Positions 5,644 to 35,032 of a stretch of DNA of 35,032 bases are shown piece by piece. The position numbers were made by a program, and so were the translations under genes. Position 1 is the first letter of the stretch, and each line of letters opens with the position of its first letter. A model generated the notes under the pieces. The model was not told the origin of the DNA, ran no database searches, and worked only from the letters and a program-made list of their open reading frames with translations. This stretch comes from an uncultured Bdellovibrionales bacterium (GTDB taxonomy: Bacteria; Patescibacteriota; Minisyncoccia; Moranbacterales; UBA1568), in contig CAZPXK010000002.1 in assembly GCA_964590035.1 (NCBI GenBank), positions 11,979 through 47,010 on the forward strand, given 5' to 3'.

Positions 5644-6075
5644 ATGATCGTGGAAAGTTTGCGGGCGAGTGCCGCCTATTTGGGGGTATTGACCCCGGAG
5701 CAGGTGTTGGTGGTCTTGATCCACGTCGCGGTCTGGGTACGGTATCTACCTTGGGCCTGTACGGGATTATCGGGGCTCAGCCCTGATCAGGAGATCAGGC
5801 GGTTGAGGCAGTCTCGTCGATACGGGGATGGAATCAAGCCAGGGTATTTGGCTGCCGGAATGAGCATTTCTTGGGCACTTGCCAGAGGCATCGTCTGGAC
5901 TGCTGTCTTGGCGGTCCTGGCCAAGAACTATCTGGTAAGCCATCATGATTGGTCAGTGGCAGTGTTCTTCTTTCTAACTCCAGTTGTTTTAGGTCTGGAG
6001 GGCTACCTTCGGTGGTCATCGCCGAAGTACAAGATGGGGAGGAAGAGGAAATCAGTCGAGCGCGTTGGCGTTTGA
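5644..6075 (+). CDS. hypothetical integral membrane protein (GC-rich relative to flanks)
   Basis: ATG preceded by GGAGGTCAAG. Contains 3-4 hydrophobic helices. No recognisable family. Confidence 0.5.
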   Translation: MIVESLRASAAYLGVLTPEQVLVVLIHVAVWVRYLPWACTGLSGLSPDQEIRRLRQSRRYGDGIKPGYLAAGMSISWALARGIVWTAVLAVLAKNYLVSHHDWSVAVFFFLTPVVLGLEGYLRWSSPKYKMGRKRKSVERVGV

Positions 6076-20135: not shown

Positions 20136-20624
20136 ATGAGAAAAATATTGACACTGTGTTTCGTAGTAAAAGAGGACAAGATTCTTCTTGGGATGAAGAA
20201 GCGTGGGTTTGGTGCTGGGCGGTGGAATGGCTTTGGAGGCAAGGTAGAAGTTGGCGAAAGTATTGAGGCAGCGGCCAAGCGTGAAACAAAGGAAGAATCC
20301 GGGATTGAGATAAGCGAGATGCAAGAGGTGGGTATCCATGAGTTTGAATTTCATGACAAGCGGGGAGATATCCTTGAAGTGCATGTGTTCCGAGTAGACA
20401 AGTGGCAGGGCGAGCCCCGAGAAACCGAAGAAATGCGGCCGCAGTGGTTCACCACCGATGCTATCCCTTACGACGAGATGTGGCCGGACGATATCCACTG
20501 GATCCCGGTGTTTTTGACCGGCAAGAAATTTCGCACCAAGTTCCTCTTTGGCGAAGGTGACTCGGTACTGGAGAATCACGTGGAAGAAGTGACTACTCTT
20601 GATGGAACAGAAGGAGTGGTTTAG
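20136..20624 (+). CDS. NUDIX hydrolase, MutT/NUDT1-like
   Basis: GRWNGFGGKVEVGESIEAAAKRETKEESGI is a Nudix box. The overall architecture is that of an 8-oxo-dGTPase-like protein. Confidence 0.85.
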   Translation: MRKILTLCFVVKEDKILLGMKKRGFGAGRWNGFGGKVEVGESIEAAAKRETKEESGIEISEMQEVGIHEFEFHDKRGDILEVHVFRVDKWQGEPRETEEMRPQWFTTDAIPYDEMWPDDIHWIPVFLTGKKFRTKFLFGEGDSVLENHVEEVTTLDGTEGVV

Positions 20625-22213: not shown

Positions 22214-22234
22214 AATTGTAAATTTTAGATACTC

Positions 22235-22344
22235 AAAAGGCGGTTCTGGCACCCAACATACGCCACAAGAGTGGTTTTTGTCGGCAGAACCGCCTTTTCG
22301 GCGACAAAAAATAGAAACTCCTGTGGAATTGGTACGTTGGGTGC
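22235..22344. repeat. cluster of inverted repeats in the spacer between the two recombinase genes
   Basis: AAAAGGCGGTTCTG (22235-22248) / CAGAACCGCCTTTT (22285-22298), perfect 14 bp. GCACCCAACATA (22249-22260) / TACGTTGGGTGC (22333-22344), 11 of 12. TTTTTGTCG (22275-22283) / CGACAAAAA (22302-22310). Confidence 0.7.
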
Positions 22345-22358
22345 ATTTATATTATGCC

Positions 22359-23498
22359 TCATTTTTCGCTTTCTGCCAACTCTTTTTTGAGGATTTTTGC
22401 GAGCTTCTTTATCGCCGTATCGCTCATATCTCCGATAACAGGTTCAATCTCTGGATTGCCGAACTTGATACCGCGGATGATTTCCGTTTGTCGGTCGGTA
22501 GAGATTTTTCCGTAACCGTAAGAACCAAAAGTTGTTCCTACGTCTGTATGTCCGAGATTTTGACTGATAGCTTTCTTTTCTTCCTCGGTCAGTCGTGTCT
22601 TGATGAACTCTTTGACGATAAGATGCCGAAAGGTATGCGGATGGAAATAGGGGATACCTGCACCTTTGAAGCGTTTCTCGAATATCTTTCTGGCAGGGGA
22701 TGCGTTGCTCCAAAAGGTAGGCTCGACAACTCCCGAACTGTAATAGCTGATATTTTCCTTTCCTTGCTCCAATTTGGTGGCGGGAAAAAGCGGGTCAATG
22801 GGTGAGAACTCCCGCTTCTTCTCAAGATAGTCGAACCATTCCAGAAAATAGGTGAGAGGTTTTTTATCAGGCATCGGGAAGAGGGCGGTCGTAATCATCT
22901 TGGAAAACTTGGTTTTCACTCCCGAGGCTGGGTCTTGTTCCAAGATGAGCCTCCGCTTGTCGAAGCTCTTCATTCGGAGGCTGGCGATAGCGGAAATTCT
23001 CGCTCCTGTCAGAAGAGTAAGGGCGATGAGAGCCTTATCACGTTTTTCAACTTCGGTTTCTCCATTGATGCTTTCAAGGACTTGCAAGACTTCCTCGAAA
23101 GTCGGAGCGTCTACCGTCCTCGCTCGGGTGGCTATCTGGCTTTCTTTCCGTGAGAGGTTCAAATAGCCTATGTGAGTAGCGTTGATTTTTGATTTCGGCT
23201 GTTGAGCAAGCCACTCGAAGAACTTTCGCAGGTAGCGGAGAATATCGTAGCAATAGCTCAAGCTGATGGGGTTTTTGGAACCCTTCTTTTCTTTCCCTTT
23301 GAGCCAGTCCCTGAAAACGATTGCCTGCTTATCGTCAAAGGAAGAAAAATCGTCCGTCTTGGTAAAGTCTTCCCAGTAGAGCAGGGCTTTCTCGAAAGAC
23401 GCTATGGAATTGTCTGAAAATTGCTCTGAATTTTTGAGGAAAGCGAAGAACTCACGCTTCGTCATTTCATTCTTGTAATTCGCTTTTTTCATATACAT
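22359..23498 (-). CDS. tyrosine recombinase / phage-type integrase
   Basis: N-terminal SAM-like core-binding domain. Catalytic domain with LTGARISAI (Arg), HPHTFRHLIV (H-x-x-R) and LGHTDVGTTFGSYGY (His/Tyr). Confidence 0.9.
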   Translation of the reverse strand: MYMKKANYKNEMTKREFFAFLKNSEQFSDNSIASFEKALLYWEDFTKTDDFSSFDDKQAIVFRDWLKGKEKKGSKNPISLSYCYDILRYLRKFFEWLAQQPKSKINATHIGYLNLSRKESQIATRARTVDAPTFEEVLQVLESINGETEVEKRDKALIALTLLTGARISAIASLRMKSFDKRRLILEQDPASGVKTKFSKMITTALFPMPDKKPLTYFLEWFDYLEKKREFSPIDPLFPATKLEQGKENISYYSSGVVEPTFWSNASPARKIFEKRFKGAGIPYFHPHTFRHLIVKEFIKTRLTEEEKKAISQNLGHTDVGTTFGSYGYGKISTDRQTEIIRGIKFGNPEIEPVIGDMSDTAIKKLAKILKKELAESEK

Positions 23499-23576
23499 TT
23501 AGGCGTTATTGATGATTTACTCGTAAAGAGACATTCAGGAGAGAGATGCTGGAACCTGTTAGTCCTTTTGGAAGTC

Positions 23577-23960
23577 TCATACGAGGCGATTTACTTTTGT
23601 CCCGCATCGCTCGCATTTTCCCCTTTGGAAGAACTGCTTCCGCGAGTTTTTCCCGATTGTTTTTCCTGTCGGAACCGTCTCTTCCGTTCCTAATGTGGCA
23701 CGGGTCGGCACTCGGCATTTCAGGCAATAATACTCGCCTTGTTGAAGTGGCACTTTTCGCTTCTTCATTTTTTCAGAAAGGAAGTGGCGGAGTTCGTCGC
23801 CCATAATGAGGAGGGGACGAGTGTTCTTTTCAAGGGGATGGAGACCATCCCCGAGCCATCGGAAAATCGTTTTCTTATTGATGTGAAAGAGCGTAGCGAT
23901 TTCTTCGGGTGTGTAGCTATGGCGAGACGTGATAAGTCTCGGGTTATATCGTCGTGTCAT
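23577..23960 (-). CDS. HTH DNA-binding protein with a C-terminal C4 zinc ribbon
   Basis: YTPEEIATLFHINKKTIFRWLGDGL is an HTH. YYCLKCRVP...GKCERCGTK gives CxxC...CxxC. The start is taken as the ATG at 23960 (MTRRYNP), downstream of the small coupled ORF. Confidence 0.6.
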   Translation of the reverse strand: MTRRYNPRLITSRHSYTPEEIATLFHINKKTIFRWLGDGLHPLEKNTRPLLIMGDELRHFLSEKMKKRKVPLQQGEYYCLKCRVPTRATLGTEETVPTGKTIGKNSRKQFFQRGKCERCGTKVNRLV

Positions 23961-23988
23961 ATTTGCGTAATTATGGATTTCAAGTTGG

Positions 23989-24162
23989 CTATGCTTCTCG
24001 GGTCGGAAGTGCCTCACCTTGAGCAGAAGCCTTCCTTTCGCAAAGCCACTGCTCAAAGATTATTTCTCCAAGGATTTGAACGGCATCCCTGATTTCGGCT
24101 ACTTCTTCATCGGAAAGCGTATCGTCGTCCAAAAGCCGTTTGGCTTCTTCGATGGTTAGCAT
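23989..24162 (-). CDS. small acidic ORF (57 aa), below the ORF-track length cut-off
   Basis: MLTIEEAKRLLDDDTLSDEEVAEIRDAVQILGEIIFEQWLCERK... Its ATG overlaps the stop of the upstream gene (ATGCTAA, 24156-24162), which suggests translational coupling. Confidence 0.4.
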   Translation of the reverse strand: MLTIEEAKRLLDDDTLSDEEVAEIRDAVQILGEIIFEQWLCERKASAQGEALPTREA

Positions 24163-24443
24163 ACGGCTTCATCCGAATAGAGACGGTTCTTTATCATCTT
24201 TTGGCTATCAAAGAGCGTCCGTGCATTGAGTTGCAAACGGTCGTTCCAATAGTCGTTGGCACTGGTCTCGATAGTCGGGACACGCCGAAAGATAAACCGA
24301 GCTTTCTTCGGGTTTACGGTTCGCTCGAGGGTATGCAACTCATACCCCAAAGCCACGAGAGAAGAAGCCAAGCCAAGGTCGGTCGTGGCATACTTCGCTT
24401 CTTCAGATAGTTCTGCTGTCTCCTTCAGATGCTTGGTAATCAT
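24156..24443 (-). CDS. DUF5659-like small protein
   Basis: TTDLGLASSLVALGYELHTLERTVNPKKARFIFRR...DYWNDRLQLNARTLFDSQKMIKNRLY fits my recollection of the DUF5659 pattern (TDLyLAafL..G..l...e....k..F.F). This has not been verified by search. Confidence 0.5.
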   Translation of the reverse strand: MITKHLKETAELSEEAKYATTDLGLASSLVALGYELHTLERTVNPKKARFIFRRVPTIETSANDYWNDRLQLNARTLFDSQKMIKNRLYSDEAVC

Positions 24444-24575
24444 AAAGATTGATATAAATGATGATTACCAATCGCGATTGGATTTGCGTTTCTGCTATAT
24501 TGCGCAAAACAAAAACGCATCGTAATGATGCGCTTTTATGTCTTTTGGAAATACTTACATCAGGAAAACGAGTAT

Positions 24576-25661
24576 TTAAATGTCCCTAATATCTTTCGGC
24601 TCTCTTCTATTTTTTATAGACTTTGCAAACCGAGTGGCACTTTTTTTGATAGCATCAGGAGTCATTTGAATATCGTTTTGTTCATCAAGAATTGCGGAGA
24701 TGATTGACTCCTTATACACACCAGCTAGAGAAAGATTTTTTTCACCCTTGTAGTGTTTCAAGAGTTCTTTCTTTGGCAGTTTATAGAGTTCATATATGAG
24801 CTGATTTCTTTTAACATCACTCTCTTTTATCTCGCTAACTTTCACATCGTATTGTTTGTAAAACGTATTCTTTTTGATGATATGCTCTTTCAAATCATTC
24901 CAATTGTCTTCTATATAATTGAGAACCTGCTCTTTTGTTGCATAGGGTTTTACTATGATGAATACACTATTGAAGTGAGAGGAAAGTAGCTTTACTGTTC
25001 TCTCGCTAAAAATATATTTACCACTAAATGGACCCTCCTCTTGACCGTCCATATCATATCGGTCAGGTGAAAAATGGGCTACCCCTATATATCTACAATT
25101 TGGACACGCAATCTTATTTTGAATGTAATTGCGAACACCCTTTTCGCCAAGAAACAGGTATTTCTCAATGAAGTGCATCATTATATGTTCATCAAGCAAG
25201 TCTACATTGAAAAATTTCTGGAATAGAGACCACGCCGTTGGGAAAAGCTTCGAAAGTTTTTTATTCTCTGATATAAAATGATTTTGAGTGAAGTAGCTGT
25301 TGTGGTCATCAATTCGTGAGGATAGAAATATAATTATATCGAGTGGTTTGAATCTTCCTTTTGATTCTTTGATAAAAGCGTCAACTACTTCGTCTCTATT
25401 TTCATTATTCAAACGAATACCTTTTTTTGCCTCATATTTCTCAATAAAACAGAAAAATGCCAGAGAATGTTGTTCATTTGCAGTAAGCTTATTCATCAGA
25501 AATTCTGCCAGTTGTGGAATTTCATCAAAGCCATTTTCAATCGGTATGCCGAGCTCTTTTCTTGTCTTTTTTATTTCATTAACAAAACCCTCCTTTATAA
25601 CAAGCTTATCAAAAAGGATTTTGAATTTTTTCTCGAAATAATCAGCAGAGTACTTTTTCAT
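24576..25661 (-). CDS. hypothetical protein (361 aa), AT-rich orphan
   Basis: Long uninterrupted ORF in a region of about 30% GC. Lys/Asn/Ile/Phe-rich. One CPNC motif. No family recognised. Transcribed divergently from the HTH-mod-res operon. Confidence 0.6.
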   Translation of the reverse strand: MKKYSADYFEKKFKILFDKLVIKEGFVNEIKKTRKELGIPIENGFDEIPQLAEFLMNKLTANEQHSLAFFCFIEKYEAKKGIRLNNENRDEVVDAFIKESKGRFKPLDIIIFLSSRIDDHNSYFTQNHFISENKKLSKLFPTAWSLFQKFFNVDLLDEHIMMHFIEKYLFLGEKGVRNYIQNKIACPNCRYIGVAHFSPDRYDMDGQEEGPFSGKYIFSERTVKLLSSHFNSVFIIVKPYATKEQVLNYIEDNWNDLKEHIIKKNTFYKQYDVKVSEIKESDVKRNQLIYELYKLPKKELLKHYKGEKNLSLAGVYKESIISAILDEQNDIQMTPDAIKKSATRFAKSIKNRREPKDIRDI

Positions 25662-25715
25662 TGCAATCCTAAAGTTTTGCGTAATCGTAATCGTGTAGTA
25701 TAGTTATGGTAACTT

Positions 25716-25937
25716 ATGGTAGAAGAGAAATCAAGTTTGATGAAACGAGAAAATATGCCTGAAATCCTCACTTTGAAACAGGCAAGCGAGGTTTTACATT
25801 GCCACCCAAATACGCTCCGCACGTGGGAGCGGGAAGGGCTGATAAAGTGTATCCGCTTTGGAAAAAGAGGCGATAGGCGATTTGCCAAGGAAGAAATACT
25901 TCGTCTACTTGATGGGAAAGTAGATTTATCAAAATAA
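25716..25937 (+). CDS. excisionase-family / MerR-type HTH DNA-binding protein
   Basis: ILTLKQASEVLHCHPNTLRTWEREGLIKCIRFGKRGDRRFAKEEI is the typical excisionase-family HTH_17 pattern. Internal starts (MKRENMPE or MPEIL) are possible. Confidence 0.7.
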   Translation: MVEEKSSLMKRENMPEILTLKQASEVLHCHPNTLRTWEREGLIKCIRFGKRGDRRFAKEEILRLLDGKVDLSK

Positions 25938-25962
25938 GATTACAAATTACGAAAAAATTACT

Positions 25963-27609
25963 ATGTCAGAAAGCTCACTCAAAAAAGGTCGTTACACGAA
26001 ATTCAGCAATAAAATTGGATTGTATAGCAATAGCAAGGGGGGCTTTATCAAAAACGATACTGACGTAGTGCTGAACTTTCCGTTCAAAGATGCCGTACTT
26101 GAAGCAGGAATGAGCAAGGAGGATGTCGGGCGTGAGGAACGCTTTCTTCACATCGAGGTTGATAGCAAAGACATCGACACGCTGGAAGAACCAAAAGTGC
26201 TTACTGACTTCCGTTACATTGATAAGGACGGCGAAAGGGCATTGGATGCCAATAGCGATATTGAGTTTTTTGATACCGAAGGTAACCTCAAGCAGAACCT
26301 GCTCATCAAGGGGAATAACTTGCTGGCACTGTATACCTTGCGTGAGCGTCTTGCTGGGCAAGTGAAGCTCATCTACATTGACCCCCCGTATAACACGGGT
26401 AACGACGGCTTCCGCTATAACGATAGCTTCAATCATTCAGCATGGCTGGTGTTTATGAGGAATCGACTTGAGGTTGCAAAAGAGTTGCTTAGTGATAATG
26501 GAGCAATATTTGTACAATGTGATGATAATGAGCAGGCTTATCTCAAGGTGTTGATGGATGAGATATTTGGACGCGATAACTTTATCGGAACTCTTATTCA
26601 TCAGCGGGCGAAAGGTGGAGGGCAAGCTAAATATATCGTAAAAGGCCACGATTATATAACTATATTTGCTAAAGATGCTAGTAGTAATGTTCAATTCGCT
26701 CGACAGAAAGTAATTCAGGGAAAGGTTGTAGAAATTGATGGAGTAGCGCACTTACGAAATGATGATATTGTTCGAAAAACTTTTGGAAAATATGATAAGT
26801 CGTTGGGAGATAGGCGCTGTTATTATGAGGAACTAGAAAAATATAAAAATCCATCCCAAATAGAGGAAATTCGACGCAAGGTTGAATTAAGAGAATATGT
26901 TTTGGAAAAAAATGCCTCTGGTATGCATACGATTGTAGCGTATACGCCTGTAGATAGTGCTTATTCGAAGCTATACTCCATCGTTAATGCTTTGTCAGAG
27001 AAGGGTAATGAGCAAATAGAAAGCCTGGGATTGGATTTCAGCAATCCTAAACCAGAAGAGATTATACGGTTTCTTATCGAATCCACTACTAAAGAAAACG
27101 ATATTGTACTTGACTATCATTTAGGTTCAGGCACTACCTCTGCTGTGGCTCAGAAGATGAACCGTCGATGGGTTGGTATTGAACAGATGGATTACATTGA
27201 AGATGTAGCGAAGGAGCGCTTAAAGAAGGTTGTTGCAGGCGAACAAGGTGGTATTAGCAAAACCGTTGGTTGGACTGGCGGTGGCTCTTTTGTGTATTTT
27301 GAACTCAAAAAATACAATCAAGAATATATCGACCGTATCGCGAAGGCTACAAGTCTCTCTGAACTGGAAGAAATCTATGTGGATATGCGGAACAATGCCT
27401 TTCTGAAGTTTTGGTTTGACCGCAAAGAGTTTGAAAAGGACGAGAATTTCCGCAATCTCGACATTCAAGGTCGCAAGCAGAAGCTCGTGGACGTATTGGA
27501 TGAAAACCAACTCTATCTGAACTATGCCGATATGGATGACACACGGCACAAAGTAACTGTCGACGAAAAGACACTAACGGACAAGTTTTATGGCTCGGCA
27601 AAAAACTAA
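25963..27609 (+). CDS. mod: type III restriction-modification DNA methyltransferase (Mod), beta-class N6A/N4C
   Basis: Motif IV IYIDPPYNTGND comes before motif I VLDYHLGSGTTSAVA, which is beta-class order, with a variable region of about 230 aa between them. It is followed by, and overlaps, a res gene. Confidence 0.9.
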   Translation: MSESSLKKGRYTKFSNKIGLYSNSKGGFIKNDTDVVLNFPFKDAVLEAGMSKEDVGREERFLHIEVDSKDIDTLEEPKVLTDFRYIDKDGERALDANSDIEFFDTEGNLKQNLLIKGNNLLALYTLRERLAGQVKLIYIDPPYNTGNDGFRYNDSFNHSAWLVFMRNRLEVAKELLSDNGAIFVQCDDNEQAYLKVLMDEIFGRDNFIGTLIHQRAKGGGQAKYIVKGHDYITIFAKDASSNVQFARQKVIQGKVVEIDGVAHLRNDDIVRKTFGKYDKSLGDRRCYYEELEKYKNPSQIEEIRRKVELREYVLEKNASGMHTIVAYTPVDSAYSKLYSIVNALSEKGNEQIESLGLDFSNPKPEEIIRFLIESTTKENDIVLDYHLGSGTTSAVAQKMNRRWVGIEQMDYIEDVAKERLKKVVAGEQGGISKTVGWTGGGSFVYFELKKYNQEYIDRIAKATSLSELEEIYVDMRNNAFLKFWFDRKEFEKDENFRNLDIQGRKQKLVDVLDENQLYLNYADMDDTRHKVTVDEKTLTDKFYGSAKN

Positions 27610-30421
27610 AGTCAATGAAACGCTCGGTAACTTTCTGTTCAATCAGATAGAAAGCGACCCTGACTTTCAGCAGTGGGCGGTAGATTATAGTATCCCTGAC
27701 TATATCACCGACAACCTACACCCGACGAAACGCTTGCGAGAGTATCAAGAGCGAGCTTTGAAGCACTTCATCTGGCTCTATGACCACGATAGGGCGAGAG
27801 CGAAGCATCTCTTGTTCAATATGGCTACGGGAACAGGGAAGACCCTTGTAATGGCATCCGTGGTGCTGTTTCTCTATGAAAAGGGCTATCGCAACTTCCT
27901 CTTTCTCGTGCATCAGATACAAATCAAAGACCAAGCCGTAAAGAACTTTACCGATTACAAGTTTGAGAAGTATCTGTTCAACCCAAAGGGTATCAAAATC
28001 AATGGACGGAATGTGGACGTCAAAATGGTCGAGAGCGTAGCGGATGCCAACCGCAACGCTATCAACTTTATGTTCTTCAGCACCTCATTGCTCTATAATC
28101 GCCTCAAAGAAGATAGGGAGAACGGATTGACTGCCGAAGACTTTGCAAATAACGATGTCGTGATAATCGCTGATGAAGCCCATCGGCTCAATGTGGATAC
28201 ACGAAGCAAAAACAAGAAAGACCAAGAAGAAATACTCAACTGGGAAACAGCCGTGATGTCGGCTATCAAGGCTCGGGAAGAAAATATGCTGTTGGAGTTT
28301 ACCGCTACGGTTGATTTGGCAAACGAAGCTATTCACAGTAAGTATGAAGATAAGATTGTTCACCGTTACGATTTCCTTGAGTTCAACAAAGACGGTTATA
28401 GCAAGGATGTGAAGTTCCTTTTCAACCAAGAGGTTCATATCGAAGACCAGAAACGCCTACTCATTATCAATGCGGTTGCTTTGAGCGAATATCGCAGGTT
28501 GCTTGCCGAACGAGAAATGGAAGTGTTCATCAGCCCGATTGTGCTTATCAAATCGGTAAAAATCGCTCAAAGCGAAGAAGACCGCAAGTTTTTTGATAGC
28601 GTGATTGGTTCCCTCCGACCAGATGATTTGAACCGTCTCAAAGAATTGAGCAAAGGAGGGAAAAACCGTGAACACGAGATTTTGAGCGATATGTTCAAAT
28701 GGCTCGCATCTCCCAAGGCTGGTCTCGTATCGCAAGGCGATTGGGAGGGATTGAAAGCGTTTACTGCCGAGATACGGGCAAGTTTCGCCCACGAAAACAC
28801 ACTTATCTATAACAGTCAGAAAAAGGAAAAAGCAGAGTTATTGCCATTATTAGATAGTCCTCGAAACACCATCCGTGCCATCTTTTCAGTCAATGCGCTG
28901 AACGAGGGTTGGGATGTGCTTGGTTTGTATGACATCGTTCATTTTGATATTTCCGAAGCCAAGAAGGTATCTCTTCAAGATATTCAGTTGATTGGTCGTG
29001 GTGCGAGATATTGTCCCTATGAACTGCCAAAGCTCTACAAGCAAGATGAAGCCGATGGTATGTCGAGCCTGTTTGCTGGGCGTAGTCTTGAGTTTGATAA
29101 ATACAAACGGAAGTTCGACAACGACCCATTCGATAAGGGGCGAGTGTTGGAAACATTCGTTTATCATTTCGTGAAAACAGGGACATTTCTTGAGAGCCTT
29201 CAGCGTGATTTGCTCGGTGAGGGCATTATCAGCGAAGGTGTCGAAAAGAAGACTATCGCGATGAAGCAAAAGTTCCTTGAAAGCGAGACTTACAAGAAAG
29301 GGTTCGTTCTCGTAAATCATACGGAACAAAGAACCAAGACGAAGGATGATGAGATTGATACGACATTCAAGCGTGTCATAAAGGCTGGCTCATATAATTT
29401 ACGGGCGAGGGGTCTATCGGATTTTGAACAAAACCAAATTATCGCAGGACAAAAAGTTGATGTTATTAGCATCACTGAAGAATATTTCCCACTGCCTGTC
29501 ATTCGTAAAGCGTTGGTTTCTGCCGAGGGTAACTTTTTCCGTTTCAGTAATTTGAGCAAGCATATTGTCGGTATCAGCACGATTGATGAACTCATTGAAA
29601 AATACCTGCCACTTTATAAAATCAGTTATACCTACGAAGAAGGCAAGGGTATCAGTCAGCTCAATCCGATAGAAAAACTGCAATTGCTGGTCGGCGTGAT
29701 ATTGCCAGAGGTGCGTAAGGCGATTGATATAAATATGCCCCGCGTAACGGGGAGCAAAAAATTCCGTCCAGTCTCGTTGTCAGTTGTATTTGGCAAGGAA
29801 AAGAATATCTATCTGATGTCGTTTCCAGTCGAAGACGCGGTTACTGGGAAGAAGGTGTTTATGAGCAACGATGAACGTGCCAAAGCACAGTCCGACCACG
29901 ACAATCCAGAACTGCAATACGATATTCAATCTGCCAATTGGTATGCCTATGATGAGAACTACGGCACGAGTGAGGAGAAACGCTTTGTGAAGTATATAGC
30001 GAGCCAGATTGATGATTTACGGGCGAAGTATCAAGGGGCGGAGATTTACCTGATACGCAACGAACTTGATTACTGGCTCTTTAGCCCGCAAGACGGACGC
30101 AGGTTCAGCCCTGACTATATGCTGATAGTGAATGATGTCGCCAATGGCGAGATGTATTACCAGTGTTTGATTGAGCCAAAGGGCGGTCATTTGCTCGAAC
30201 ACGATGTGTGGAAAGAAGAAGCCCTGATAAGCCTGAATGATGATAGCGAGGTGGTATTTGACGCACGGGATGGTGATACTCGCAATTACCGTGAATACTT
30301 AGCAGAAGTCAGCAAGCACGGCTATAAGGAGATAAAATCGCTTGGCTTGAAGTTCTACAATTCCGACCCTCGCGGTGAAGAAGATTTCGCACTGGATTTT
30401 CAAGAAAAATTACTTCGCTAA
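27590..30421 (+). CDS. res: type III restriction endonuclease subunit (Res), SF2 helicase + PD-(D/E)xK nuclease
   Basis: NMATGTGKT (motif I), IIADEAHRL (DEAH), SVNALNEGWDV, IGRGAR, and the C-terminal FSPDYMLIV...CLIEPKG nuclease motif. The start overlaps mod by 20 nt. Confidence 0.9.
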   Translation: MARQKTKVNETLGNFLFNQIESDPDFQQWAVDYSIPDYITDNLHPTKRLREYQERALKHFIWLYDHDRARAKHLLFNMATGTGKTLVMASVVLFLYEKGYRNFLFLVHQIQIKDQAVKNFTDYKFEKYLFNPKGIKINGRNVDVKMVESVADANRNAINFMFFSTSLLYNRLKEDRENGLTAEDFANNDVVIIADEAHRLNVDTRSKNKKDQEEILNWETAVMSAIKAREENMLLEFTATVDLANEAIHSKYEDKIVHRYDFLEFNKDGYSKDVKFLFNQEVHIEDQKRLLIINAVALSEYRRLLAEREMEVFISPIVLIKSVKIAQSEEDRKFFDSVIGSLRPDDLNRLKELSKGGKNREHEILSDMFKWLASPKAGLVSQGDWEGLKAFTAEIRASFAHENTLIYNSQKKEKAELLPLLDSPRNTIRAIFSVNALNEGWDVLGLYDIVHFDISEAKKVSLQDIQLIGRGARYCPYELPKLYKQDEADGMSSLFAGRSLEFDKYKRKFDNDPFDKGRVLETFVYHFVKTGTFLESLQRDLLGEGIISEGVEKKTIAMKQKFLESETYKKGFVLVNHTEQRTKTKDDEIDTTFKRVIKAGSYNLRARGLSDFEQNQIIAGQKVDVISITEEYFPLPVIRKALVSAEGNFFRFSNLSKHIVGISTIDELIEKYLPLYKISYTYEEGKGISQLNPIEKLQLLVGVILPEVRKAIDINMPRVTGSKKFRPVSLSVVFGKEKNIYLMSFPVEDAVTGKKVFMSNDERAKAQSDHDNPELQYDIQSANWYAYDENYGTSEEKRFVKYIASQIDDLRAKYQGAEIYLIRNELDYWLFSPQDGRRFSPDYMLIVNDVANGEMYYQCLIEPKGGHLLEHDVWKEEALISLNDDSEVVFDARDGDTRNYREYLAEVSKHGYKEIKSLGLKFYNSDPRGEEDFALDFQEKLLR

Positions 30422-30433
30422 TGAGAAAACAAT

Positions 30434-31315
30434 ATGCCAATCTTTCAAATCGCCAGTAAGAACGCAAAGCAGATAGCTCTTGATTTGGGTCGTTTTGAAA
30501 ACGAAGCCTCCCTCCGTGATTACTTCGCGGAAAATCTTGAAAGCCTCCTTGGTATGCGTTTTTTGGCGAAAGAGTATCAAACACGCGATGGGAGAATTGA
30601 TACGCTGGCGATTGATGAGGCAAATGCCCCAGTGATTATTGAGTATAAATGGAACGAAAAGGATACCATACTTCCGCAGGGTCTTTTCTATTTCAACTGG
30701 CTCAAAGAAAACAAACGGTTATTCAATCTTCAGGCTGAAAAAATCCTTGGAAAGGAAGTCAAAGTCAATTGGGAAAAACCACGGGTCGTGCTTATTGCTC
30801 AAGGATTTGACCGCTACACGATGTTTGCCGTCCGAGAGGTGCGGTATGTGGAACTTATCAAATATACGCCATACAAGGACGGTATTTTGCTTCTTGAGAC
30901 GGTATATAGTCCAGATACGTCCAAGCCCATTACGGAAAAAGCGGAAGAAAGTGAGACTGAAGAGAAAGAAGAAAAATTCGGGGTTGATTACCATTTGGAG
31001 AAAGTTACGAATGAAGTGAAAGAGGTTTTCTATGCTCTTGAAGAGAGGCTTTTGGCATTGCCTTCGGTGACGGAGGTTGCCGAGCAAAAGGCGGGCATTA
31101 CCTATCGGACAACCAAGAGCTTTACACGGTTTGAGTTCGGAAAGACATACATTGATATTCTGCTCCGTGAGGCAAAGTATGAAGACCCGCAGGGATTGGT
31201 TCAGGATATTGCTTCATACAAATGGGGTTATAACGGGAGAATAAAAATCAAATCTCTTGAGGAGGTAGAGACTATCTTTGAGTTGATACGCCAGTCGTAT
31301 CAGTCTACCCTTTAG
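30434..31315 (+). CDS. NucS/DUF91-like PD-(D/E)xK nuclease-fold protein with a DUF5655-like C-terminal domain
   Basis: The N-terminal pattern ...EASLRDYFAENLESLLGMRFLAKEYQTRDGRIDTLAIDEANAPVIIEYKW is typical of NucS/DUF91-type nucleases. An acidic linker follows. The C-terminus (ITYRTTKSFTRFEFGKTYIDILL...KIKSLEEVETIFELIRQSY) resembles DUF5655. Both calls are from memory. Confidence 0.6.
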   Translation: MPIFQIASKNAKQIALDLGRFENEASLRDYFAENLESLLGMRFLAKEYQTRDGRIDTLAIDEANAPVIIEYKWNEKDTILPQGLFYFNWLKENKRLFNLQAEKILGKEVKVNWEKPRVVLIAQGFDRYTMFAVREVRYVELIKYTPYKDGILLLETVYSPDTSKPITEKAEESETEEKEEKFGVDYHLEKVTNEVKEVFYALEERLLALPSVTEVAEQKAGITYRTTKSFTRFEFGKTYIDILLREAKYEDPQGLVQDIASYKWGYNGRIKIKSLEEVETIFELIRQSYQSTL

Positions 31316-31323
31316 AAAAAAAA

Positions 31324-31506
31324 ATGTATCACCCTATTCAACCACCAGAAGGAAGCATTGAATGGATGAAGGAGATGGTGAAGAAGAATGAGGGGCGTGA
31401 GCTGACTGACCAAGAGGCTTACGAAGTGGCATACAACTATCTCAATTTCTTCAATATGCTTATATATCTGGATAAAAAGCAGAAGCCTAACAAACCAAAA
31501 GAGTAA
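31324..31506 (+). CDS. small hypothetical protein (60 aa)
   Basis: Tightly packed between flanking genes, with its stop 4 nt before the next ATG. Shares an [LI]-[ST]-D-x-[ED]-A-x-E...L..hh motif with ORFs 32369..32569 and 23989..24162. Confidence 0.4.
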   Translation: MYHPIQPPEGSIEWMKEMVKKNEGRELTDQEAYEVAYNYLNFFNMLIYLDKKQKPNKPKE

Positions 31507-31510
31507 ATTT

Positions 31511-32359
31511 ATGAAAGCAGTAAAAAAGCCCCCACTCAAAGCTAACCTGACACGTCTCTCCAAAGATAAGGAATGGCGTCTGTATAAGAGAAAATCGGCT
31601 ATACCCATAGGGGCAGAGACATCAAGGCACTACTTGATTGGTACCTTGACCAATGGTTTCAATCTTATCCTGGCTGGTATAACTGGCTCTGGGAAAAGCA
31701 CATTTTTCCACAGTGCTATTGTTCATCTTTTGGAGAATACAAAGCCTGACGAATTGAAGCTCGTCCTCATTGACCCGAAACAAGTAGAACTGCGAATATA
31801 CGAAAGTCTGCCTAACTTGGCGTTTCCAGTTATTGGGACTTCAAAAGAAGCAAAGAAAGTTCTGAAATGGTGTATGAGTGAGATGAACCATCGACTCGAG
31901 ACCCTGACAAAAAAAGGGAAGCCTATATCTTTTGACGATTTCAATCGAAAGCATAAGAGCAAATTACCGAGGATTGTAGTTCTTATCGACGAATGTTCTG
32001 ATTTGATGCACGATAGCCCTCGTTTCTTCAGGAAGGCAATCGAAGACATACTCAAGCTTGGAGAGGCGACTGGCGTAAACTTGGTGATAGGCACATCTCG
32101 TCCGTCACTTGATGTTTATCCTGAAAAGCTAGTGAGTGCATTTCAATATAAACTAGCCTTCAAAGTATCGAAGTCCACTGATTCCGTACTTGTTCTTGGT
32201 GTAAAGGGTGCTGAAAAATTGCGAGGTAAAGGGGATATGCTTTTCCGCTTTTGGGAGGGACTGGAGGAGCGTGTTGCTCATTTACAGGGCTTCTATATAA
32301 GTGAGGCGGAAATAAAGAAAGCTATCGCTTCAATCAAACCGCTTAGGAATGGGGGGTAA
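31511..32359 (+). CDS. FtsK/SpoIIIE-family DNA translocase ATPase, motor domain only
   Basis: Walker A LILAGITGSGKSTF, Walker B PRIVVLIDECSDL, VNLVIGTSRPS, GKGDMLF. No TM segment or gamma domain. Confidence 0.8.
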   Translation: MKAVKKPPLKANLTRLSKDKEWRLYKRKSAIPIGAETSRHYLIGTLTNGFNLILAGITGSGKSTFFHSAIVHLLENTKPDELKLVLIDPKQVELRIYESLPNLAFPVIGTSKEAKKVLKWCMSEMNHRLETLTKKGKPISFDDFNRKHKSKLPRIVVLIDECSDLMHDSPRFFRKAIEDILKLGEATGVNLVIGTSRPSLDVYPEKLVSAFQYKLAFKVSKSTDSVLVLGVKGAEKLRGKGDMLFRFWEGLEERVAHLQGFYISEAEIKKAIASIKPLRNGG

Positions 32360-32368
32360 GTAGAGTGT

Positions 32369-32569
32369 ATGGTTTCTCAAGAGGCTCTGGAAGAGTATAA
32401 GAAAATCTACAGGAAGCAATTTAGAAAGGATATTTCGGATGCTGACGCCTTGGAACAGGCGACCAAGCTCCTTCGTCTTATGGAAATCATCTACAAGCCA
32501 ATGACGAAAGAGGAGTTTGATGAACTGGCGAGAAGGAACCCGACTATATCGCTTGAGCCTGCTCAATAG
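32369..32569 (+). CDS. small hypothetical protein (66 aa)
   Basis: Starts 9 nt after the ftsK-like stop. The motif DISDADALEQATKLLRLMEIIY is shared with two other small ORFs of the element. Confidence 0.45.
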   Translation: MVSQEALEEYKKIYRKQFRKDISDADALEQATKLLRLMEIIYKPMTKEEFDELARRNPTISLEPAQ

Positions 32570-32590: not shown

Positions 32591-32615
32591 AGAGGCTTTA
32601 CAGAGCCTCTTTTTT
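32591..32615 (+). terminator. rho-independent terminator
   Basis: AGAGGC (32591-32596) / GCCTCT (32605-32610), followed by TTTTT. Confidence 0.55.
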
Positions 32616-32618
32616 GTA

Positions 32619-32647
32619 TTGACACCGAGCCTAAAAAGGTGTATAAT
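32619..32647 (+). promoter_or_regulatory. consensus sigma70 promoter of the DGR target gene (TTGACA-17 nt-TATAAT)
   Basis: TTGACA at 32619-32624, exactly 17 nt of spacer, TATAAT at 32642-32647. Both hexamers are perfect consensus. Confidence 0.65.
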
Positions 32648-32794
32648 GGTATGTTGAACCTTAAAAATCCATACTTTTGCCATAGCAGAAAGCGGCTTCA
32701 TCTAGGCCTTTCTCTGCTATGGCAAACTCGAATCTTTCGAGACCTGGCCTGCGACCATGTCCGCAAGGATAGTCGCTTCAACAAGGAGATCGTT

Positions 32795-33421
32795 ATGACG
32801 AAGTCCGAGTTTTCTGTCGTTGGTCTGGCGCACAAAATCTGCCTTGCCGCAGAAGCGCAGGGATACAACCCCGAGCTTCTCAACGCTTTGGCGGAACATC
32901 CTTCTCTCTTCGAGCAATTGCTCGAAGTGCAGCAAGGTCGAGCGAACATCGTTCCGTTCGAGAAAAAGCCGGAGCCCGTTCTCGACACCCTCATCCGTGT
33001 CGACCGCTCCATCCGGCCGGTTTACCCCGACTGGATGAAGACCGTGATGCATCCGGAACTGGAATCTACCGGCCTGGTCGAATACGATCTCGGAACCATC
33101 AACCCTTGGCTCCATGACGGTCAGAAAAATGGCCGCTACATGGAAGGCAACAAGCTCTACGAGTATCTGAAAGAACAGAAGATGCTCGAGAGCTGCCTGT
33201 CGCTGCGCGACGGCGAAGAGATCCAAAAGAAAGGCCTGGCTGTTTTCCGGAAGTTCTTCCAAGGCAAAGCGGTCTTTCTCTGGAAGTCAGTCGTGCGGCG
33301 CCGCGGCGGCAGCCTCAACGTTCCGTATCTCTACGAGGACGACGACGGGGTGGTGGTGGGCTGGCGCTGGCTCGGCAGCAGCTGGGACGGCAACGACCCC
33401 GCTCTGCGCTTCGCAAGTTAG
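32795..33421 (+). CDS. DGR variable (target) protein, 208 aa, no signal peptide; VR forms the C-terminal 42 codons
   Basis: The ATG at 32795 is preceded by AAGGAG 7 nt upstream. The ORF-track start at 32639 lies inside the promoter -10 region and is rejected. The C-terminus ...GGSLNVPYLYEDDDGVVVGWRWLGSSWDGNDPALRFAS ends 5 nt after the VR, as in CLec-fold DGR targets (xxGFRxA-like ending). Confidence 0.85.
   Translation: MTKSEFSVVGLAHKICLAAEAQGYNPELLNALAEHPSLFEQLLEVQQGRANIVPFEKKPEPVLDTLIRVDRSIRPVYPDWMKTVMHPELESTGLVEYDLGTINPWLHDGQKNGRYMEGNKLYEYLKEQKMLESCLSLRDGEEIQKKGLAVFRKFFQGKAVFLWKSVVRRRGGSLNVPYLYEDDDGVVVGWRWLGSSWDGNDPALRFAS
33291..33414 (+). repeat. DGR variable repeat (VR)
   Basis: 124 bp aligned without gaps to 33771-33894 (offset exactly 480). 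There are 19 mismatches, all at positions where the TR has A (17 are G and 2 are C in the VR). The adenine-free 3' block CCCCGCTCTGCGCTTCGC is identical in both. Confidence 0.92.
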
Positions 33422-33474
33422 CACTCTGGACTCTGTATCTTTGGTCTCTTAGACCCTTGATACTTAGTCCTTTG

Positions 33475-33510
33475 ACCCCGCATTTTACCTAATGGTAGTG
33501 CGGGGTTTTC
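33475..33510 (+). terminator. rho-independent terminator downstream of the target gene
   Basis: ACCCCGCA (33475-33482) / TGCGGGGT (33499-33506), followed by TTTT. Confidence 0.55.
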
Positions 33511-33546
33511 ATTTTCTCAATTTTTTATCTTTTGATATACTGAAAT

Positions 33547-33940
33547 TGGTAGTAGGCGAATCTTGCAGGCGACTACGGTTGCCAGCGGCCGAATCCAGTA
33601 TCCATACACCGAGAGTATCCGCGGCCACGGTTTCGGATAGAGTGGTGTATGTAGACACTTCACTAAAAATGAAGATACTTGGTATAAGATGCTAAGGCAT
33701 TTGAGATGCCGAATACGATTCAACTCTGAGAGTATTCAAGGGGTGATGGCACAGGTGGCATTTTATACGTTCGTGCAGAACCGCAACGGCAACCTCAACG
33801 TTCCGTATCTCTACGAGAACGACGACAAGGTGGTGGTGAACTGGAACTGGCTCGACAACAACTGGAACGACAACAACCCCGCTCTGCGCTTCGCCATTCT
33901 CTTCTTTCTCCTCTCACTGGTTAGAGGAGTTTTGTTTTTT
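33547..33940 (+). ncRNA. putative DGR template RNA (structured leader + TR + 3' hairpin)
   Basis: Extended -10 TGaTATACT at 33533-33541. Leader stems: GTAGT/ACTAC (33549-53 / 33572-76), CATACACC/GGTGTATG (33603-10 / 33644-51) enclosing TATCCG/CGGATA (33616-21 / 33634-39), GGCAT/ATGCC (33696-33710) and GAATAC/GTATTC (33711-16 / 33732-37). The TR is at 33771-33894. A hairpin CTCCTCT/AGAGGAG (33908-33929) is followed by a T-run. Transcript ends are inferred, not demonstrated. Confidence 0.35.
33771..33894 (+). repeat. DGR template repeat (TR)
   Basis: Contains 34 adenines, including 12 AAC codons when read in the VR frame. 19 of the 34 A positions differ in the VR, and no non-A position differs. 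Confidence 0.92.
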
Positions 33941-34303
33941 CAGGAGCTGTCCCTGCCAACCCCCGAGCATTCGCCCGATTTCATCAAGTCTTACCGAAAG
34001 TGCCAGATACTTTTTGTTATCCAGTGACTTGGTCTCCCACAAAATCATCAAGAAGAGTTTGAGGGTATCCATCTTTTTGATAGCGTGGCGGATGTACGGA
34101 ATCTTTTCCGTACCTGAAGAAAAGCTGGCTGCTGCCACTGCTTCAATAGTTTCTACAAAGAGACTATCAATTTTCTGCCCTAGAGAATGCCGGTGAATTT
34201 TTGGCAAAGTAAAAAGATAGCTATACCACAATGTGTATCCTTCCTTCAGTTTTTGCAAAAGAGGTAAGAGCTTCGGGGGGGGGGTGTTCAAAGAAGAGTT
34301 CAT
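33914..34303 (-). CDS. avd: DGR accessory variability determinant (Avd), four-helix-bundle / 23S rRNA intervening-sequence protein family
   Basis: 129 aa. ...YLFTLPKIHRHSLGQKIDSLFVETIEAV...IKKMDTLKLFLMILWETK...LSVRLDEIGRMLGGWQGQLLKK parallels Bordetella bAvd (IPRKHG..., AEVGRILGSWIARVNRK) and the four-helix-bundle family. It lies between the TR and the RT but on the opposite strand. Confidence 0.85.
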   Translation of the reverse strand: MNSSLNTPPPKLLPLLQKLKEGYTLWYSYLFTLPKIHRHSLGQKIDSLFVETIEAVAAASFSSGTEKIPYIRHAIKKMDTLKLFLMILWETKSLDNKKYLALSVRLDEIGRMLGGWQGQLLKKQNSSNQ

Positions 34304-35032
34304 ATATAAAGAAAAAATGTGCTGCCACTTATGATAATATCATTTCTCTCGATAATTTGCTTATCGCTTGGAAAGAGTTCTTGAAAGGAAAACAGAAGAA
34401 AAAAGATGTACAGGAGTTTGAATTGCGCCTTATGGATAATATCCTCGCACTGCACCAAAACCTCGTAACTAAAACCTACCGCCATTCAAGCTACGAGGCT
34501 TTCAATATTTCCGACCCCAAACCTCGAAACATCCATAAAGCCCGAGTGAGAGACCGAGTCGTTCATCGTGCCATATACCGCATTCTCTATCCTTTCTTCG
34601 ACCGGCTATTCATTGCTGACTCATATTCCTGTCGAAATGACAAAGGAATCCACAAAGCTCTTGACCGTTTCCGAAGCTTCGCTCGCAAAGCTTCCCACAA
34701 CCATACACGGACTGTTTGGGCACTCAAATGCGATGTGAGGAAGTTCTTTGCTTCTATTGACCAGAGCATCCTCCTTGGTATTCTCGAAAAGCATATTCTT
34801 GACCAAGATATTCTCAAGCTTCTTTCAGCAATCATTGGGAGCTTCCATACAGAGGAGGGGAAAGGCTTACCGCTTGGCAATCTCACATCCCAGCTTTTGG
34901 TGAACGTCTATATGAACGAGTTCGACCAGTTTATGAAACATCAAGCAAAGGCGAAATACTATATTCGTTACGCTGATGACTTTGTAATTTTCTCGGATAA
35001 TAAGGAGCAACTGAAAACAACTCTCTTGCAGA
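34231..35032 (+). CDS. DGR reverse transcriptase, C-terminus beyond the window edge; start uncertain
   Basis: Absent from the ORF track because it is open at 35032. Translation: ...YDNIISLDNLLIAWKEFLKGKQKKKDVQEF...PRNIHKARVRDRVVHRAIYRIL...SYSCRNDKGIHKAL...ALKCDVRKFFASIDQSIL...GLPLGNLTSQLLVNVYMNEFD...YIRYADDFVIF. The LGNLTSQ motif (rather than the QGxxxSP of group II introns) and YADD are DGR-RT hallmarks. The only in-frame ATG upstream is at 34231, which overlaps avd by 73 nt. Confidence 0.9.
   Translation, partial: MCILPSVFAKEVRASGGGCSKKSSYIKKKCAATYDNIISLDNLLIAWKEFLKGKQKKKDVQEFELRLMDNILALHQNLVTKTYRHSSYEAFNISDPKPRNIHKARVRDRVVHRAIYRILYPFFDRLFIADSYSCRNDKGIHKALDRFRSFARKASHNHTRTVWALKCDVRKFFASIDQSILLGILEKHILDQDILKLLSAIIGSFHTEEGKGLPLGNLTSQLLVNVYMNEFDQFMKHQAKAKYYIRYADDFVIFSDNKEQLKTTLLQ
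34275..34284. repeat. G10 homopolymer (C10 on the avd strand)
   Basis: Ten consecutive G at 34275-34284. They encode Pro-Pro-Pro (codons 8-10) of avd on the minus strand and Gly-Gly-Gly of the extended RT frame on the plus strand. Confidence 0.9.

Follow-up and report, generated by a model that had tools for sequence, protein, structure and literature searches.

The window analysed here, a stretch of 35,032 nucleotides from an uncultured bacterium, carries a DGR at its 3′ end. The target gene with its VR, a leader, the TR, avd, and the RT follow one another from position 32795 to position 35032, all on the + strand except avd, which is on the − strand. A promoter, VR, TR, avd, hairpin, and RT had been recognised in an earlier sequence-only reading; each was present where that reading had placed it, and all of its window coordinates were correct. 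The features are as follows.

32619–32647, + strand: promoter of the target gene, TTGACA-17-TATAAT, matching the consensus at 12 of 12 positions
32795–33421, + strand: DGR target gene, 208 aa, with AAGGAG before the ATG and the VR at the C-terminus
33291–33414, + strand: VR, 124 nt, 85% identical to the TR
33422–33475, strand not assigned: array of CTTNG-type motifs with a period of 7–8 nt, directly 3′ of the target stop codon
33476–33509, + strand: terminator-like hairpin of the target gene, CCCCGCA...TGCGGGG and then TTTT, read from the sequence
33533–33541, + strand: putative template-RNA promoter, extended −10 (TG-A-TATACT), in conserved columns of alignments A3 and A4
33548–33770, + strand: conserved structured non-coding leader, a proposed RT/Avd scaffold, recognised by covariation
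33565–33586, + strand: leader helix H1
33603–33651, + strand: leader helix H2
33667–33675, + strand: 5′ strand of the long-range helix
33682–33693 with 33757–33768, + strand: leader helix H3, 12 bp, ending 2 nt before the TR
33696–33710, + strand: leader helix H4
33723–33744, + strand: leader helix H5
33771–33894, + strand: TR, 124 nt
33895–33907, + strand: post-TR linker, of which 33900–33907 (TCTTCTTT) is the 3′ strand of the long-range helix
33908–33940, + strand: hairpin of 7 bp with an 8-nt loop, plus U-run, overlapping the last 9 avd codons of the other strand
33914–34303, − strand: avd ORF, 129 aa, with Pfam bAvd and fold matches
34231–35032, + strand: RT of the DGR (RVT_1), cut by the window end
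34275–34284, strand not assigned: G10 homopolymer in the avd/RT junction, read as PPP in the avd ORF and as GGG in the extended RT ORF

Both a DGR-clade RT and a TR/VR pair were found, the pair differing at TR adenines (19 of 19 mismatches) and the VR lying at the 3′ end of the target ORF, 7 nt short of its end; the region thus belongs to the DGRs. The target gene gave no match to any Pfam family. The CTTNG motifs that follow it averaged 3.5 per 80 nt in 53 loci, as compared with 0.53 in shuffles, with a successive spacing of 7–8 nt, and G+C-rich hairpins equivalent to its terminator occupied the same place in the alignment of relatives. A 112-aa ORF (33689–34027, + strand) that crosses the leader, the TR, and antisense avd had no family match and was taken as spurious.

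The identification of the − strand ORF as avd, on which the sequence-only reading had staked its account, held. The ORF matched Pfam bAvd (PF22296) with an E value of 1.6e-12 and 48.3 bits, above the curated cutoff of 40, and PF22296 was present in every one of 946 Avd homologues. An AlphaFold2 model, built with database homologues, had a pLDDT of 83.9 and four long helices. Foldseek matched it to BPP-1 Avd (4DWL, chain D) with a probability of 1.00 and a target-normalised TM-score of 0.84, and also to the Avd chains of 8UB7 and 8UBB. Sequence searches of the PDB with Avd, using a single sequence or a 40-sequence profile, gave no match, so the fold comparison was needed to make this link. These results indicate that the ORF encodes an Avd with a four-helix-bundle fold like that of the pentameric BPP-1 Avd. 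The stop codon (33914–33916) lies 20 nt past the TR, as had been read; the true start codon is uncertain because the fold begins at residue 14.

The RT frame has no stop codon between the ATG at 34231 and the window end, and it matched RVT_1 (E = 1e-21). The best PDB match was BPP-1 bRT (8UB7_A, E = 3.6e-46), and the DGR-type motif LGNLTSQ is visible. More than 8000 homologues of the RT exist. Those bearing names were all from Patescibacteria, and the RT is 60–90% identical to named CPR RTs. A cassette 98.5% identical to that of the window is present on contig L084, where the RT is full-length at 360 aa and is followed by a Fic-domain gene; the match to the window begins at 32591, just upstream of the target-gene promoter.

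The TR (33771–33894, +), a reverse-strand avd (33914–34303), and the RT (34231 onward, +), with no other accessory gene, place the element in Architecture B3, the TR-(avd)-RT order with avd on the reverse strand that makes up 90% of the CPR DGR set (Wu et al. 2018, NAR 46:11, PMC5758913) and corresponds to DGR clade 2 of Roux et al. 2021 (PMC8144416). Its gene architecture shows no difference from that of these B3 CPR DGRs, sharing with them the order and orientation of TR, reverse avd, and RT, a single adjacent target, and a Patescibacteria host. A comparison among DGRs with related RTs, which the reading had suggested, was run, and avd lay on the reverse strand directly upstream of the RT, in the TR-(avd)-RT layout, in 74 of 74 related loci with enough upstream DNA; the comparison of RNA features below drew on 53–68 relatives. 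The order VR-leader-TR-(avd)-RT was found in 53 of 53 related loci in which TR and VR were found. As to a co-directional avd elsewhere, which the reading had named, together with an ORF that is not Avd-like, as fatal to its account, no second avd was present in any related locus examined or on contig L084. The reading had called the architecture atypical: its anatomy stood, and the atypicality holds only in comparison with phage BPP-1. Within this RT clade a reverse-strand avd is normal, and the element is in gene layout an ordinary member of the CPR DGRs catalogued in 2018. As the standard CPR arrangement, the layout offers no novelty. We read the region as a complete, probably active DGR of the CPR type with Architecture B3, target/VR-TR-(avd)-RT.

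A leader of about 220 nt was present between the target gene and the TR in all 68 loci with enough upstream DNA, and its distance from the RT was fixed in every locus of the clade. Its consensus structure comprises 55 pairs, with 93.1% of cells paired as compared with 72.4% in shuffles. Compensatory cells numbered 646, as compared with 167 ± 19 in shuffles, and none of 500 shuffles reached as high a value; shared ancestry of the related sequences may raise such counts, but slid controls (37–52% paired) speak against that here. The leader showed no codon periodicity. No Rfam family matched the window leader at threshold, and among 24 related loci Rfam reported no RNA family besides tRNA and one group I intron. 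These comparative results demonstrate that the interval between target gene and TR specifies a universal, covarying structured RNA. At the position of the putative template-RNA promoter, TGNTANNNT occurred in 45 of 53 loci, as compared with 23% of shuffles, and transcription would start at about 33548.

The leader is predicted to reach across the TR. Its segment AAAUGAAGA pairs with the 9 nt following the TR; in the window, TCTTCTTT pairs with AAATGAAGA of the leader. This long-range helix was 84.1% paired (72.3% in shuffles), with 48 compensatory cells as compared with 14, and the mean duplex energy was −6.18 kcal/mol for cognate and −4.34 kcal/mol for non-cognate combinations (z = −7.9). The helix is weaker in the window because one nucleotide of the post-TR segment is deleted, and a competing local hairpin (CUUCA/UGAAG) is predicted in its place. 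The hairpin with a T-run that had been noticed at the avd stop is there: a stem at 33908–33929, with the avd stop codon in its loop, is followed by TTTTGTTTTTT. A covarying stem with a variable loop and then GAGTTTTGTTTT was present in 53 of 53 loci, and a strict detector for hairpin plus U-run was positive in 47 of the 53, as compared with 5% of control windows. This hairpin may serve as an intrinsic terminator, bind Avd as a stem-loop, or do both.

Handa et al. (bioRxiv 10.1101/2023.10.23.563531) reported stem-loops directly behind the TR in CPR DGRs. From only 40 nt on the upstream and 100 nt on the downstream side of the TR, they also inferred that the two flanks form BPP-1-like duplexes in these elements; BPP-1-like elements predicted from segments of this size may mislead for this clade. 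The BPP-1 RNP (same preprint; PDB 8UB7) likewise has a stem-loop that directly follows the TR. The BPP-1 DGR (mtd-avd-TR-Sp-brt) and the present element share a homologous RT, the Avd fold, adenine-specific TR/VR differences, a stable duplex adjoining the TR 5′ end, and a duplex beside the TR 3′ end. In BPP-1, however, avd is co-directional and upstream of the TR, whereas here it is on the reverse strand between TR and RT. BPP-1 also separates TR from RT by a structured non-coding 3′ spacer of about 140 nt, whereas the interval here is avd coding on the other strand, and antisense avd has no conserved structure. Both TR-flanking duplexes take their partner strand from the 3′ spacer in BPP-1 and, as predicted, from the 5′ leader here.

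Retron msr-msd RNA carries its structured non-coding part on the 5′ side of the template, and a long-range duplex links that part to sequence just 3′ of the template. The topology proposed here is the same, and by analogy reverse transcription would begin just 3′ of the template. In contrast to retrons, the RT is of the DGR clade, Avd is a partner, and the template is a copy of the target gene subject to adenine mutagenesis; nothing here points to the branching G or the msDNA of retrons. The leader H2 (33609–33664) resembles the 5′ hairpin of Rfam RT-7 RNA (RF03028), including the GAGAGU/AGAGUG internal loop, at 23.2 bits, which is below the gathering score of 116.8; only the 5′ hairpin aligns, and 141 of the 191 model positions are absent. 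The RT-1 to RT-19 motifs, which were proposed as retron or DGR RNAs (Weinberg et al. 2017, PMC5737381), had no match in the 24 related loci.

We propose that a dedicated extended −10 promoter drives the template RNA and that most transcripts stop at the hairpin/U-run at about 33940; these ends, the promoter, and the termination are inferred from sequence. The product, about 390 nt long, would be self-contained and would carry its scaffold 5′ of the TR. The leader would bind the RT in place of the BPP-1 3′ spacer and, via the long-range helix, would position the primer beside the TR 3′ end; H3 would stop cDNA synthesis; and the 3′ hairpin would be the counterpart of the Avd-binding stem-loop. 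The adenine-mutagenised cDNA would then replace the VR, as in other DGRs. Because nothing functional would be needed downstream of the hairpin, the opposite strand between TR and RT would be free to carry avd, of which only the last 9 or so codons would overlap the template-RNA 3′ end. As a whole, this explanation, a CPR-type DGR seated in a genomic island of a Moranbacteria-like bacterium and using an upstream-scaffold, self-contained template RNA, is in our judgement reasonably probable. For the general claim, that the template RNA of CPR DGRs is permuted, a self-contained transcript about 390 nt long that carries the RT/Avd scaffold and priming site 5′ of the TR, the leader:post-TR helix setting the start and H3 the stop of the cDNA, and the RNA ending at the hairpin/U-run that overlaps the avd stop, we judge the case evenly balanced. 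Counting against the model, the long-range helix is weakened in the window, the window RT is without the canonical ATG of its family, and Handa et al. inferred duplexes of the BPP-1 kind around the TR of CPR DGRs. Moreover, no RT promoter was found within avd in the window, so the RT may depend on read-through of the hairpin, which may after all yield a long TR-antisense-avd-RT RNA.

The sequence-only reading had offered two explanations of the interval between TR and RT. Under one of them, the template RNA runs through avd, and antisense avd is a BPP-1-like spacer with primer and RT-binding elements. The interval (33895–34230) has about the right place and size, a read-through RNA may exist in the apparent lack of a separate RT promoter, and Handa et al. 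(same bioRxiv preprint) reported spacer-like elements that are predicted, for CPR DGRs, in the 100 nt after the TR. However, RNAalifold found 0 consensus pairs in 50 aligned antisense-avd sequences (+ strand), and conservation over avd was codon-periodic, with 1.01, 1.35, and 0.42 bits at codon positions 1, 2, and 3; because the third positions vary freely, there is no sign of a second constraint. Rfam RT-10, the BPP-1 spacer, gave no match, and a covarying hairpin and conserved U-run stand directly after the TR. Beyond the first 45 nt or so this explanation is unsupported, and we regard it as highly improbable. The other, a scaffold or priming RNA upstream of the TR, gained comparative support from the universal covarying leader and its predicted pairing with sequence just 3′ of the TR. 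The scaffold role is itself proposed from comparison of sequences, and the leader may instead be a regulatory RNA, such as a sensor or stability element that sets the amount of template RNA, with priming achieved otherwise, for example by a nicked template or a trans-acting primer; competition between the long-range helix and the local hairpin might provide a switch. Two of the best-supported helices nevertheless lie at the TR boundaries, H3 2 nt before and the long-range helix 3–5 nt after, a placement that fits template positioning, and neither a riboswitch nor any other Rfam family matched. The constant spacing between leader and RT, with no locus of the clade lacking the leader, also speaks against regulation, which we consider unlikely.

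The 73-nt overlap of the avd and RT ORFs, between the avd ATG at 34303 and the RT ATG at 34231, is present as had been read, and its biological reality depends on the choice of RT start codon. Ahead of the conserved YDNIISL motif, the ATG at 34231 is the only in-frame ATG, GTG, or TTG. In most relatives an ATG precedes the Y of YDxIISL by 8 codons and is the usual RT start of the family; the corresponding codon of the window, at 34306, is ATA. This loss, together with the 1-nt deletion within the long-range helix, would be expected if the cassette were inactive or decaying and the overlap a by-product. The RT ORF is nevertheless intact (and full-length on contig L084), as are avd and the target ORF, and the VR/TR differences are confined to adenines. 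In addition, the whole Moranbacteria subclade (P0003–P0012) shares the long N-terminal RT extension, which suggests an alternative start rather than decay. Decay appears to us a very unlikely account, and a probably active element with an upstream-scaffold template RNA is the reading that we prefer.

The DGRs of CPR bacteria rank with the most abundant in nature, and to our knowledge the DGR mechanism is known wholly from one phage element, which has a 3′ spacer. The structured RNA needed by CPR DGRs probably lies upstream of the template, not downstream as in the Bordetella phage model. The universally conserved, putative 5′ scaffold with template-flanking helices points to a candidate priming region. 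If true, a permuted template RNA would add a second, compact way of priming to the DGRs and, with the scaffold 5′ of the TR, would explain how the CPR lineage can have avd inverted; a compact module with an RNA of about 390 nt could serve engineered targeted mutagenesis. The proposed layout of the leader RNA as an upstream scaffold appears undescribed in the publications that the literature search covered. Likewise, the descriptions of B3/clade 2 DGRs among these publications mention neither RNA structure, nor the leader, nor the junction G-run.

This G-run, of 6–14 G (mode 9–11), was present in 63 of about 72 related loci, mostly 14 nt ahead of the RT ATG. The idea that the G10 tract turns avd, and possibly the RT, on and off by phase variation was weakened, since upstream ATGs were in the avd-core frame in 21 of 62 loci, about the chance level. 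A metagenome scan using the flanks of the window found no tract-length variants. Five close relatives, 78–98% identical over the aligned DGR region, each have exactly 10 G/C; the frame differences among them come from the flanking sequence and not from the length of the tract.

Every component that the sequence-only reading had listed for the DGR was present in the region, as follows.

32619-32647, + strand: perfect sigma-70 consensus promoter, preceding the 208-aa ORF
32795-33421, + strand: DGR target gene, a 208-aa ORF closed by VR
33291-33414, + strand: VR, a 124-nt direct repeat 85% identical to TR
33771-33894, + strand: TR, the downstream repeat copy (124 nt)
33914-34303, - strand: avd, matching Pfam bAvd above the curated threshold (E = 1.6e-12)
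34231 (ATG) to past the window end, + strand: RT (RVT_1)

All differences between VR and TR (19/19) were at adenines of TR. The closest solved relative of RT was BPP-1 bRT (E = 3.6e-46). The ORF at 33914-34303 was checked for an Avd-like domain and fold. All of its database homologues (946/946) carried the bAvd domain; in the source databases they are annotated as Patescibacteria "four helix bundle protein". An AlphaFold2 model (pLDDT 83.9) contained four long helices and matched BPP-1 Avd, in 4DWL as well as in the Avd chains of the RNP structure 8UB7, with a probability of 1.00 and a target-normalised TM-score of ~0.8. By both checks the ORF is Avd.

We searched for relatives of the element to compare its layout. 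RT matched more than 8000 proteins at E<1e-10, and all the named ones were from Patescibacteria (CPR). A genome scan using one genome per species gave 80 related loci, nearly all from CPR MAGs; the nearest (90% identical) was in a Candidatus Moraniibacteriota MAG. In 74/74 loci with enough upstream DNA, the gene immediately preceding RT was a minus-strand Avd homologue, and a second avd was absent from every related locus scanned. The order VR(+), ~350 nt, TR(+), (avd), RT(+) was found in 53/53 loci with a detectable adenine-biased TR/VR pair. "TR-(avd)-RT", in which parentheses denote the reverse strand, was defined as Architecture B3 by Wu et al. 2018 (PMC5758913). The anatomy described earlier as atypical was thus correct in its parts and is the usual one in this lineage, and the element belongs to an already catalogued DGR kind. 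A co-directional avd beyond the window had also been considered; on a 98.5% identical contig that reaches past RT, the next gene after RT encoded a Fic-domain protein and no avd was found. By the membership tests the element is a DGR, carries Avd and has Architecture B3; it failed the tests for Rfam RT-7 and for a 3' spacer of the BPP-1 type.

Two alternatives had been proposed for the functional RNA, namely that the same DNA encodes Avd on one strand and a template-RNA 3' segment on the other, or that a scaffold RNA lies upstream of TR. We assessed both by comparison across relatives. The RNA elements in the window are given below.

33533-33541, + strand: extended -10 of the leader (TG-A-TATACT)
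33603-33651, + strand: H2, long stem (internal loop GAGAG/AGAG, tetraloop UACG)
33682-33693 with 33757-33768, + strand: H3, 12 bp, 97% paired, the strongest helix
33667-33675 with 33900-33907, + strand: long-range helix between the single-stranded leader segment AAAUGAAGA and post-TR UCUUCAUUU

The leader, situated between the target-gene terminator and TR, was conserved about as strongly as first codon positions, without periodicity. A profile built from it detected a + strand copy in 68/68 loci with enough DNA, at a distance of 461-686 nt from RT on the upstream side, and an extended -10 motif (TGNTANNNT) preceded it in 45/53 loci, compared with 23% of shuffles. The leader helices were predicted using RNAalifold and received very strong support from explicit pair counting: 93.1% of cells were paired (72.4% in shuffles), compensatory cells numbered 646 (167±19 in shuffles), and the covariation score was 0.648 against 0.25, with 0/500 shuffles as high. 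Sliding the 3' partners by 1-3 columns gave 37-52% paired. H3 ends 2 nt upstream of TR. H2 weakly resembled the Rfam RT-7 5' hairpin, scoring 23 bits where the gathering score is 116.8, and the leader RNA had no counterpart in Rfam 15; a limited literature search found no account of it, and a prior description is possible. The octamer GAGAGTAT occurred twice, in the H2 internal loop (33611-33618) and the H5 loop (33727-33734). Both copies were conserved among loci and could be repeated protein-binding sites.

For the long-range helix, 84.1% of cells were paired (72.3% in shuffles; 48-58% in slid controls), and compensatory cells numbered 48 against 14±3. Cognate leader/post-TR duplexes were more stable than non-cognate ones (-6.18 and -4.34 kcal/mol, respectively; z = -7.9, 0/10000 permutations). 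Covarying pairs included AAAUAAAG/CUUUAUUU, AAGUGAG/CUCACUU and AUCGG/CCGAA. The window RNA (33548-33941) folded with z = -3.1 and reproduced H2, H3, H4 and the 3' hairpin. A 1-nt deletion weakens the long-range helix in the window, where this helix also faces competition from a local CUUCA/UGAAG hairpin. The covarying leader gives comparative support to the proposal of a scaffold or priming RNA upstream of TR.

RNAalifold gave 0 consensus base pairs in the antisense-avd strand (50 aligned sequences), and conservation tracked the avd codon phase (1.01/1.35/0.42 bits at positions 1/2/3). Neither result pointed to an additional constraint at the RNA level antisense to avd. Immediately after TR, the pattern ...CGCAA-CUCUCUUCAUUU-stem-loop-GAGUUUUGUUUU was present in 53/53 loci, with a covarying stem sequence and a loop of 3 to 36 nt. 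A strict detector (stem >=7 bp immediately followed by TTTT) found this hairpin in 47/53 loci and in 5% of control windows. The avd ORF runs antisense through the hairpin and, depending on the locus, stops in the loop or beyond; in the window the stop (33914-33916) is inside the loop of hairpin 33908-33929, and the U-run then follows. From the hairpin conservation and the antisense reading of avd through it, a small family-wide dual-use overlap of ~30-45 nt is real. Further than ~45 nt from TR, the dual-coding proposal is not supported.

The comparison established the parts, the clade-wide layout and a structured leader whose helices include one at each TR boundary. For BPP-1, cDNA synthesis requires an RNA made up of 20 nt of avd, TR and a 140-nt 3' spacer; located in this spacer are the Avd-binding stem-loop, priming adenosine, stop duplex and RT-binding stem-loop (Handa et al., bioRxiv 10.1101/2023.10.23.563531). 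For CPR DGRs, that study covered no more than 40 nt on the upstream and 100 nt on the downstream side of TR. We infer that the template RNA here would be an independent ~390-nt transcript that starts near 33548 and ends at the U-run near 33940, with the 5' leader in the role of the BPP-1 spacer. H3 would be the stop duplex, the long-range helix would place a leader nucleotide beside the TR 3' end for priming, and the 3' hairpin may be an Avd-binding element, a terminator, or both. In topology the proposed template RNA would resemble retron msr-msd RNA, where the scaffold likewise precedes the template on its 5' side and a long-range duplex forms at the template 3' end. Such an arrangement would explain how avd is able to occupy the TR-RT interval on the other strand. 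No RT promoter was found within avd, so read-through of the hairpin into RT is possible.

The reported 73-nt overlap between the avd start (34303) and the RT ATG (34231) is correct for the ORFs and biologically uncertain, because the RT start of most relatives corresponds to 34306 and, in the AlphaFold2 model, residue 14 is the first of the Avd fold. In most relatives the RT start is an ATG that precedes the Y of YDxIISL by 8 codons; this Y aligned with BPP-1 bRT residue 9. Where these relatives have the ATG, the window has ATA (34306-34308), 2 nt from the avd ATG (34303-34301, - strand); the two start codons are likewise back-to-back, a few nt apart, in other loci. The Moranbacteria subclade of the window lacks the canonical RT ATG, and its called RT proteins all extend upstream and read the G-run as "GGG"; the closest relatives have Ile, Val or Lys at the equivalent position. 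Translation of RT in this subclade may begin at a non-canonical start codon, or the protein may carry an N-terminal extension encoded across the G-run. The G homopolymer in the junction (34275-34284, 10 nt) measured 6-14 nt (mode 9-11) in 63 of ~72 related loci. It usually precedes the RT ATG by 14 nt and, on the other strand, lies just upstream of Avd helix 1. It could serve RT as an SD-like element, belong to a promoter or UTR, or act as a slippage switch. The upstream ATGs of avd were in frame in only 21/62 loci, and five close relatives all have exactly 10 nt, which argues against rapid length change.

The contig reaching past RT that was mentioned above is ENA wastewater metagenome contig k127_136504, on which the whole cassette (window 32591-35032) was 98.5% identical. 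The match has a sharp left edge at 32591, a short distance ahead of the target promoter, and the two contigs carry different genes upstream of it; movement or recombination of the cassette as one unit therefore seems likely. Core chromosomal genes (trmD, ftsW, murG, murC, murB, secA, hpf) fill the left part of the window. An apparent genomic island (20642-32569) adjoins tRNA-Ala and has the DGR at its end; besides the genes tabulated below, the island encodes a DUF5655 protein.

20642-20715: tRNA-Ala, next to the island
20621-22252, - strand: serine recombinase
22359-23498, - strand: tyrosine integrase
25963-27609: type III restriction-modification mod
27590-30421: type III restriction-modification res
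31511-32359: FtsK/SpoIIIE-like ATPase

The target-gene 5' UTR, ~140 nt from the consensus promoter to the start codon, contains a 21-nt inverted repeat (32676-32726, 86% complementary, 9-nt gap) that could be a regulatory hairpin. One related locus (L015) has, besides the canonical pair, a second adenine-biased repeat pair 3' of RT (TR 5791-5933, VR 5009-5151), suggestive of an additional target or cassette. Directly 3' of the target stop codon in the window is a tandem CTTNG array (33422-33475) with a motif spacing of 7-8 nt, at the position where BPP-1 carries the IMH-flanking hairpin. Across 53 loci, the 80 nt after VR contained a mean of 3.5 CTTNG motifs, compared with 0.53 in shuffles, and the array may serve in target-site recognition or in protein binding.
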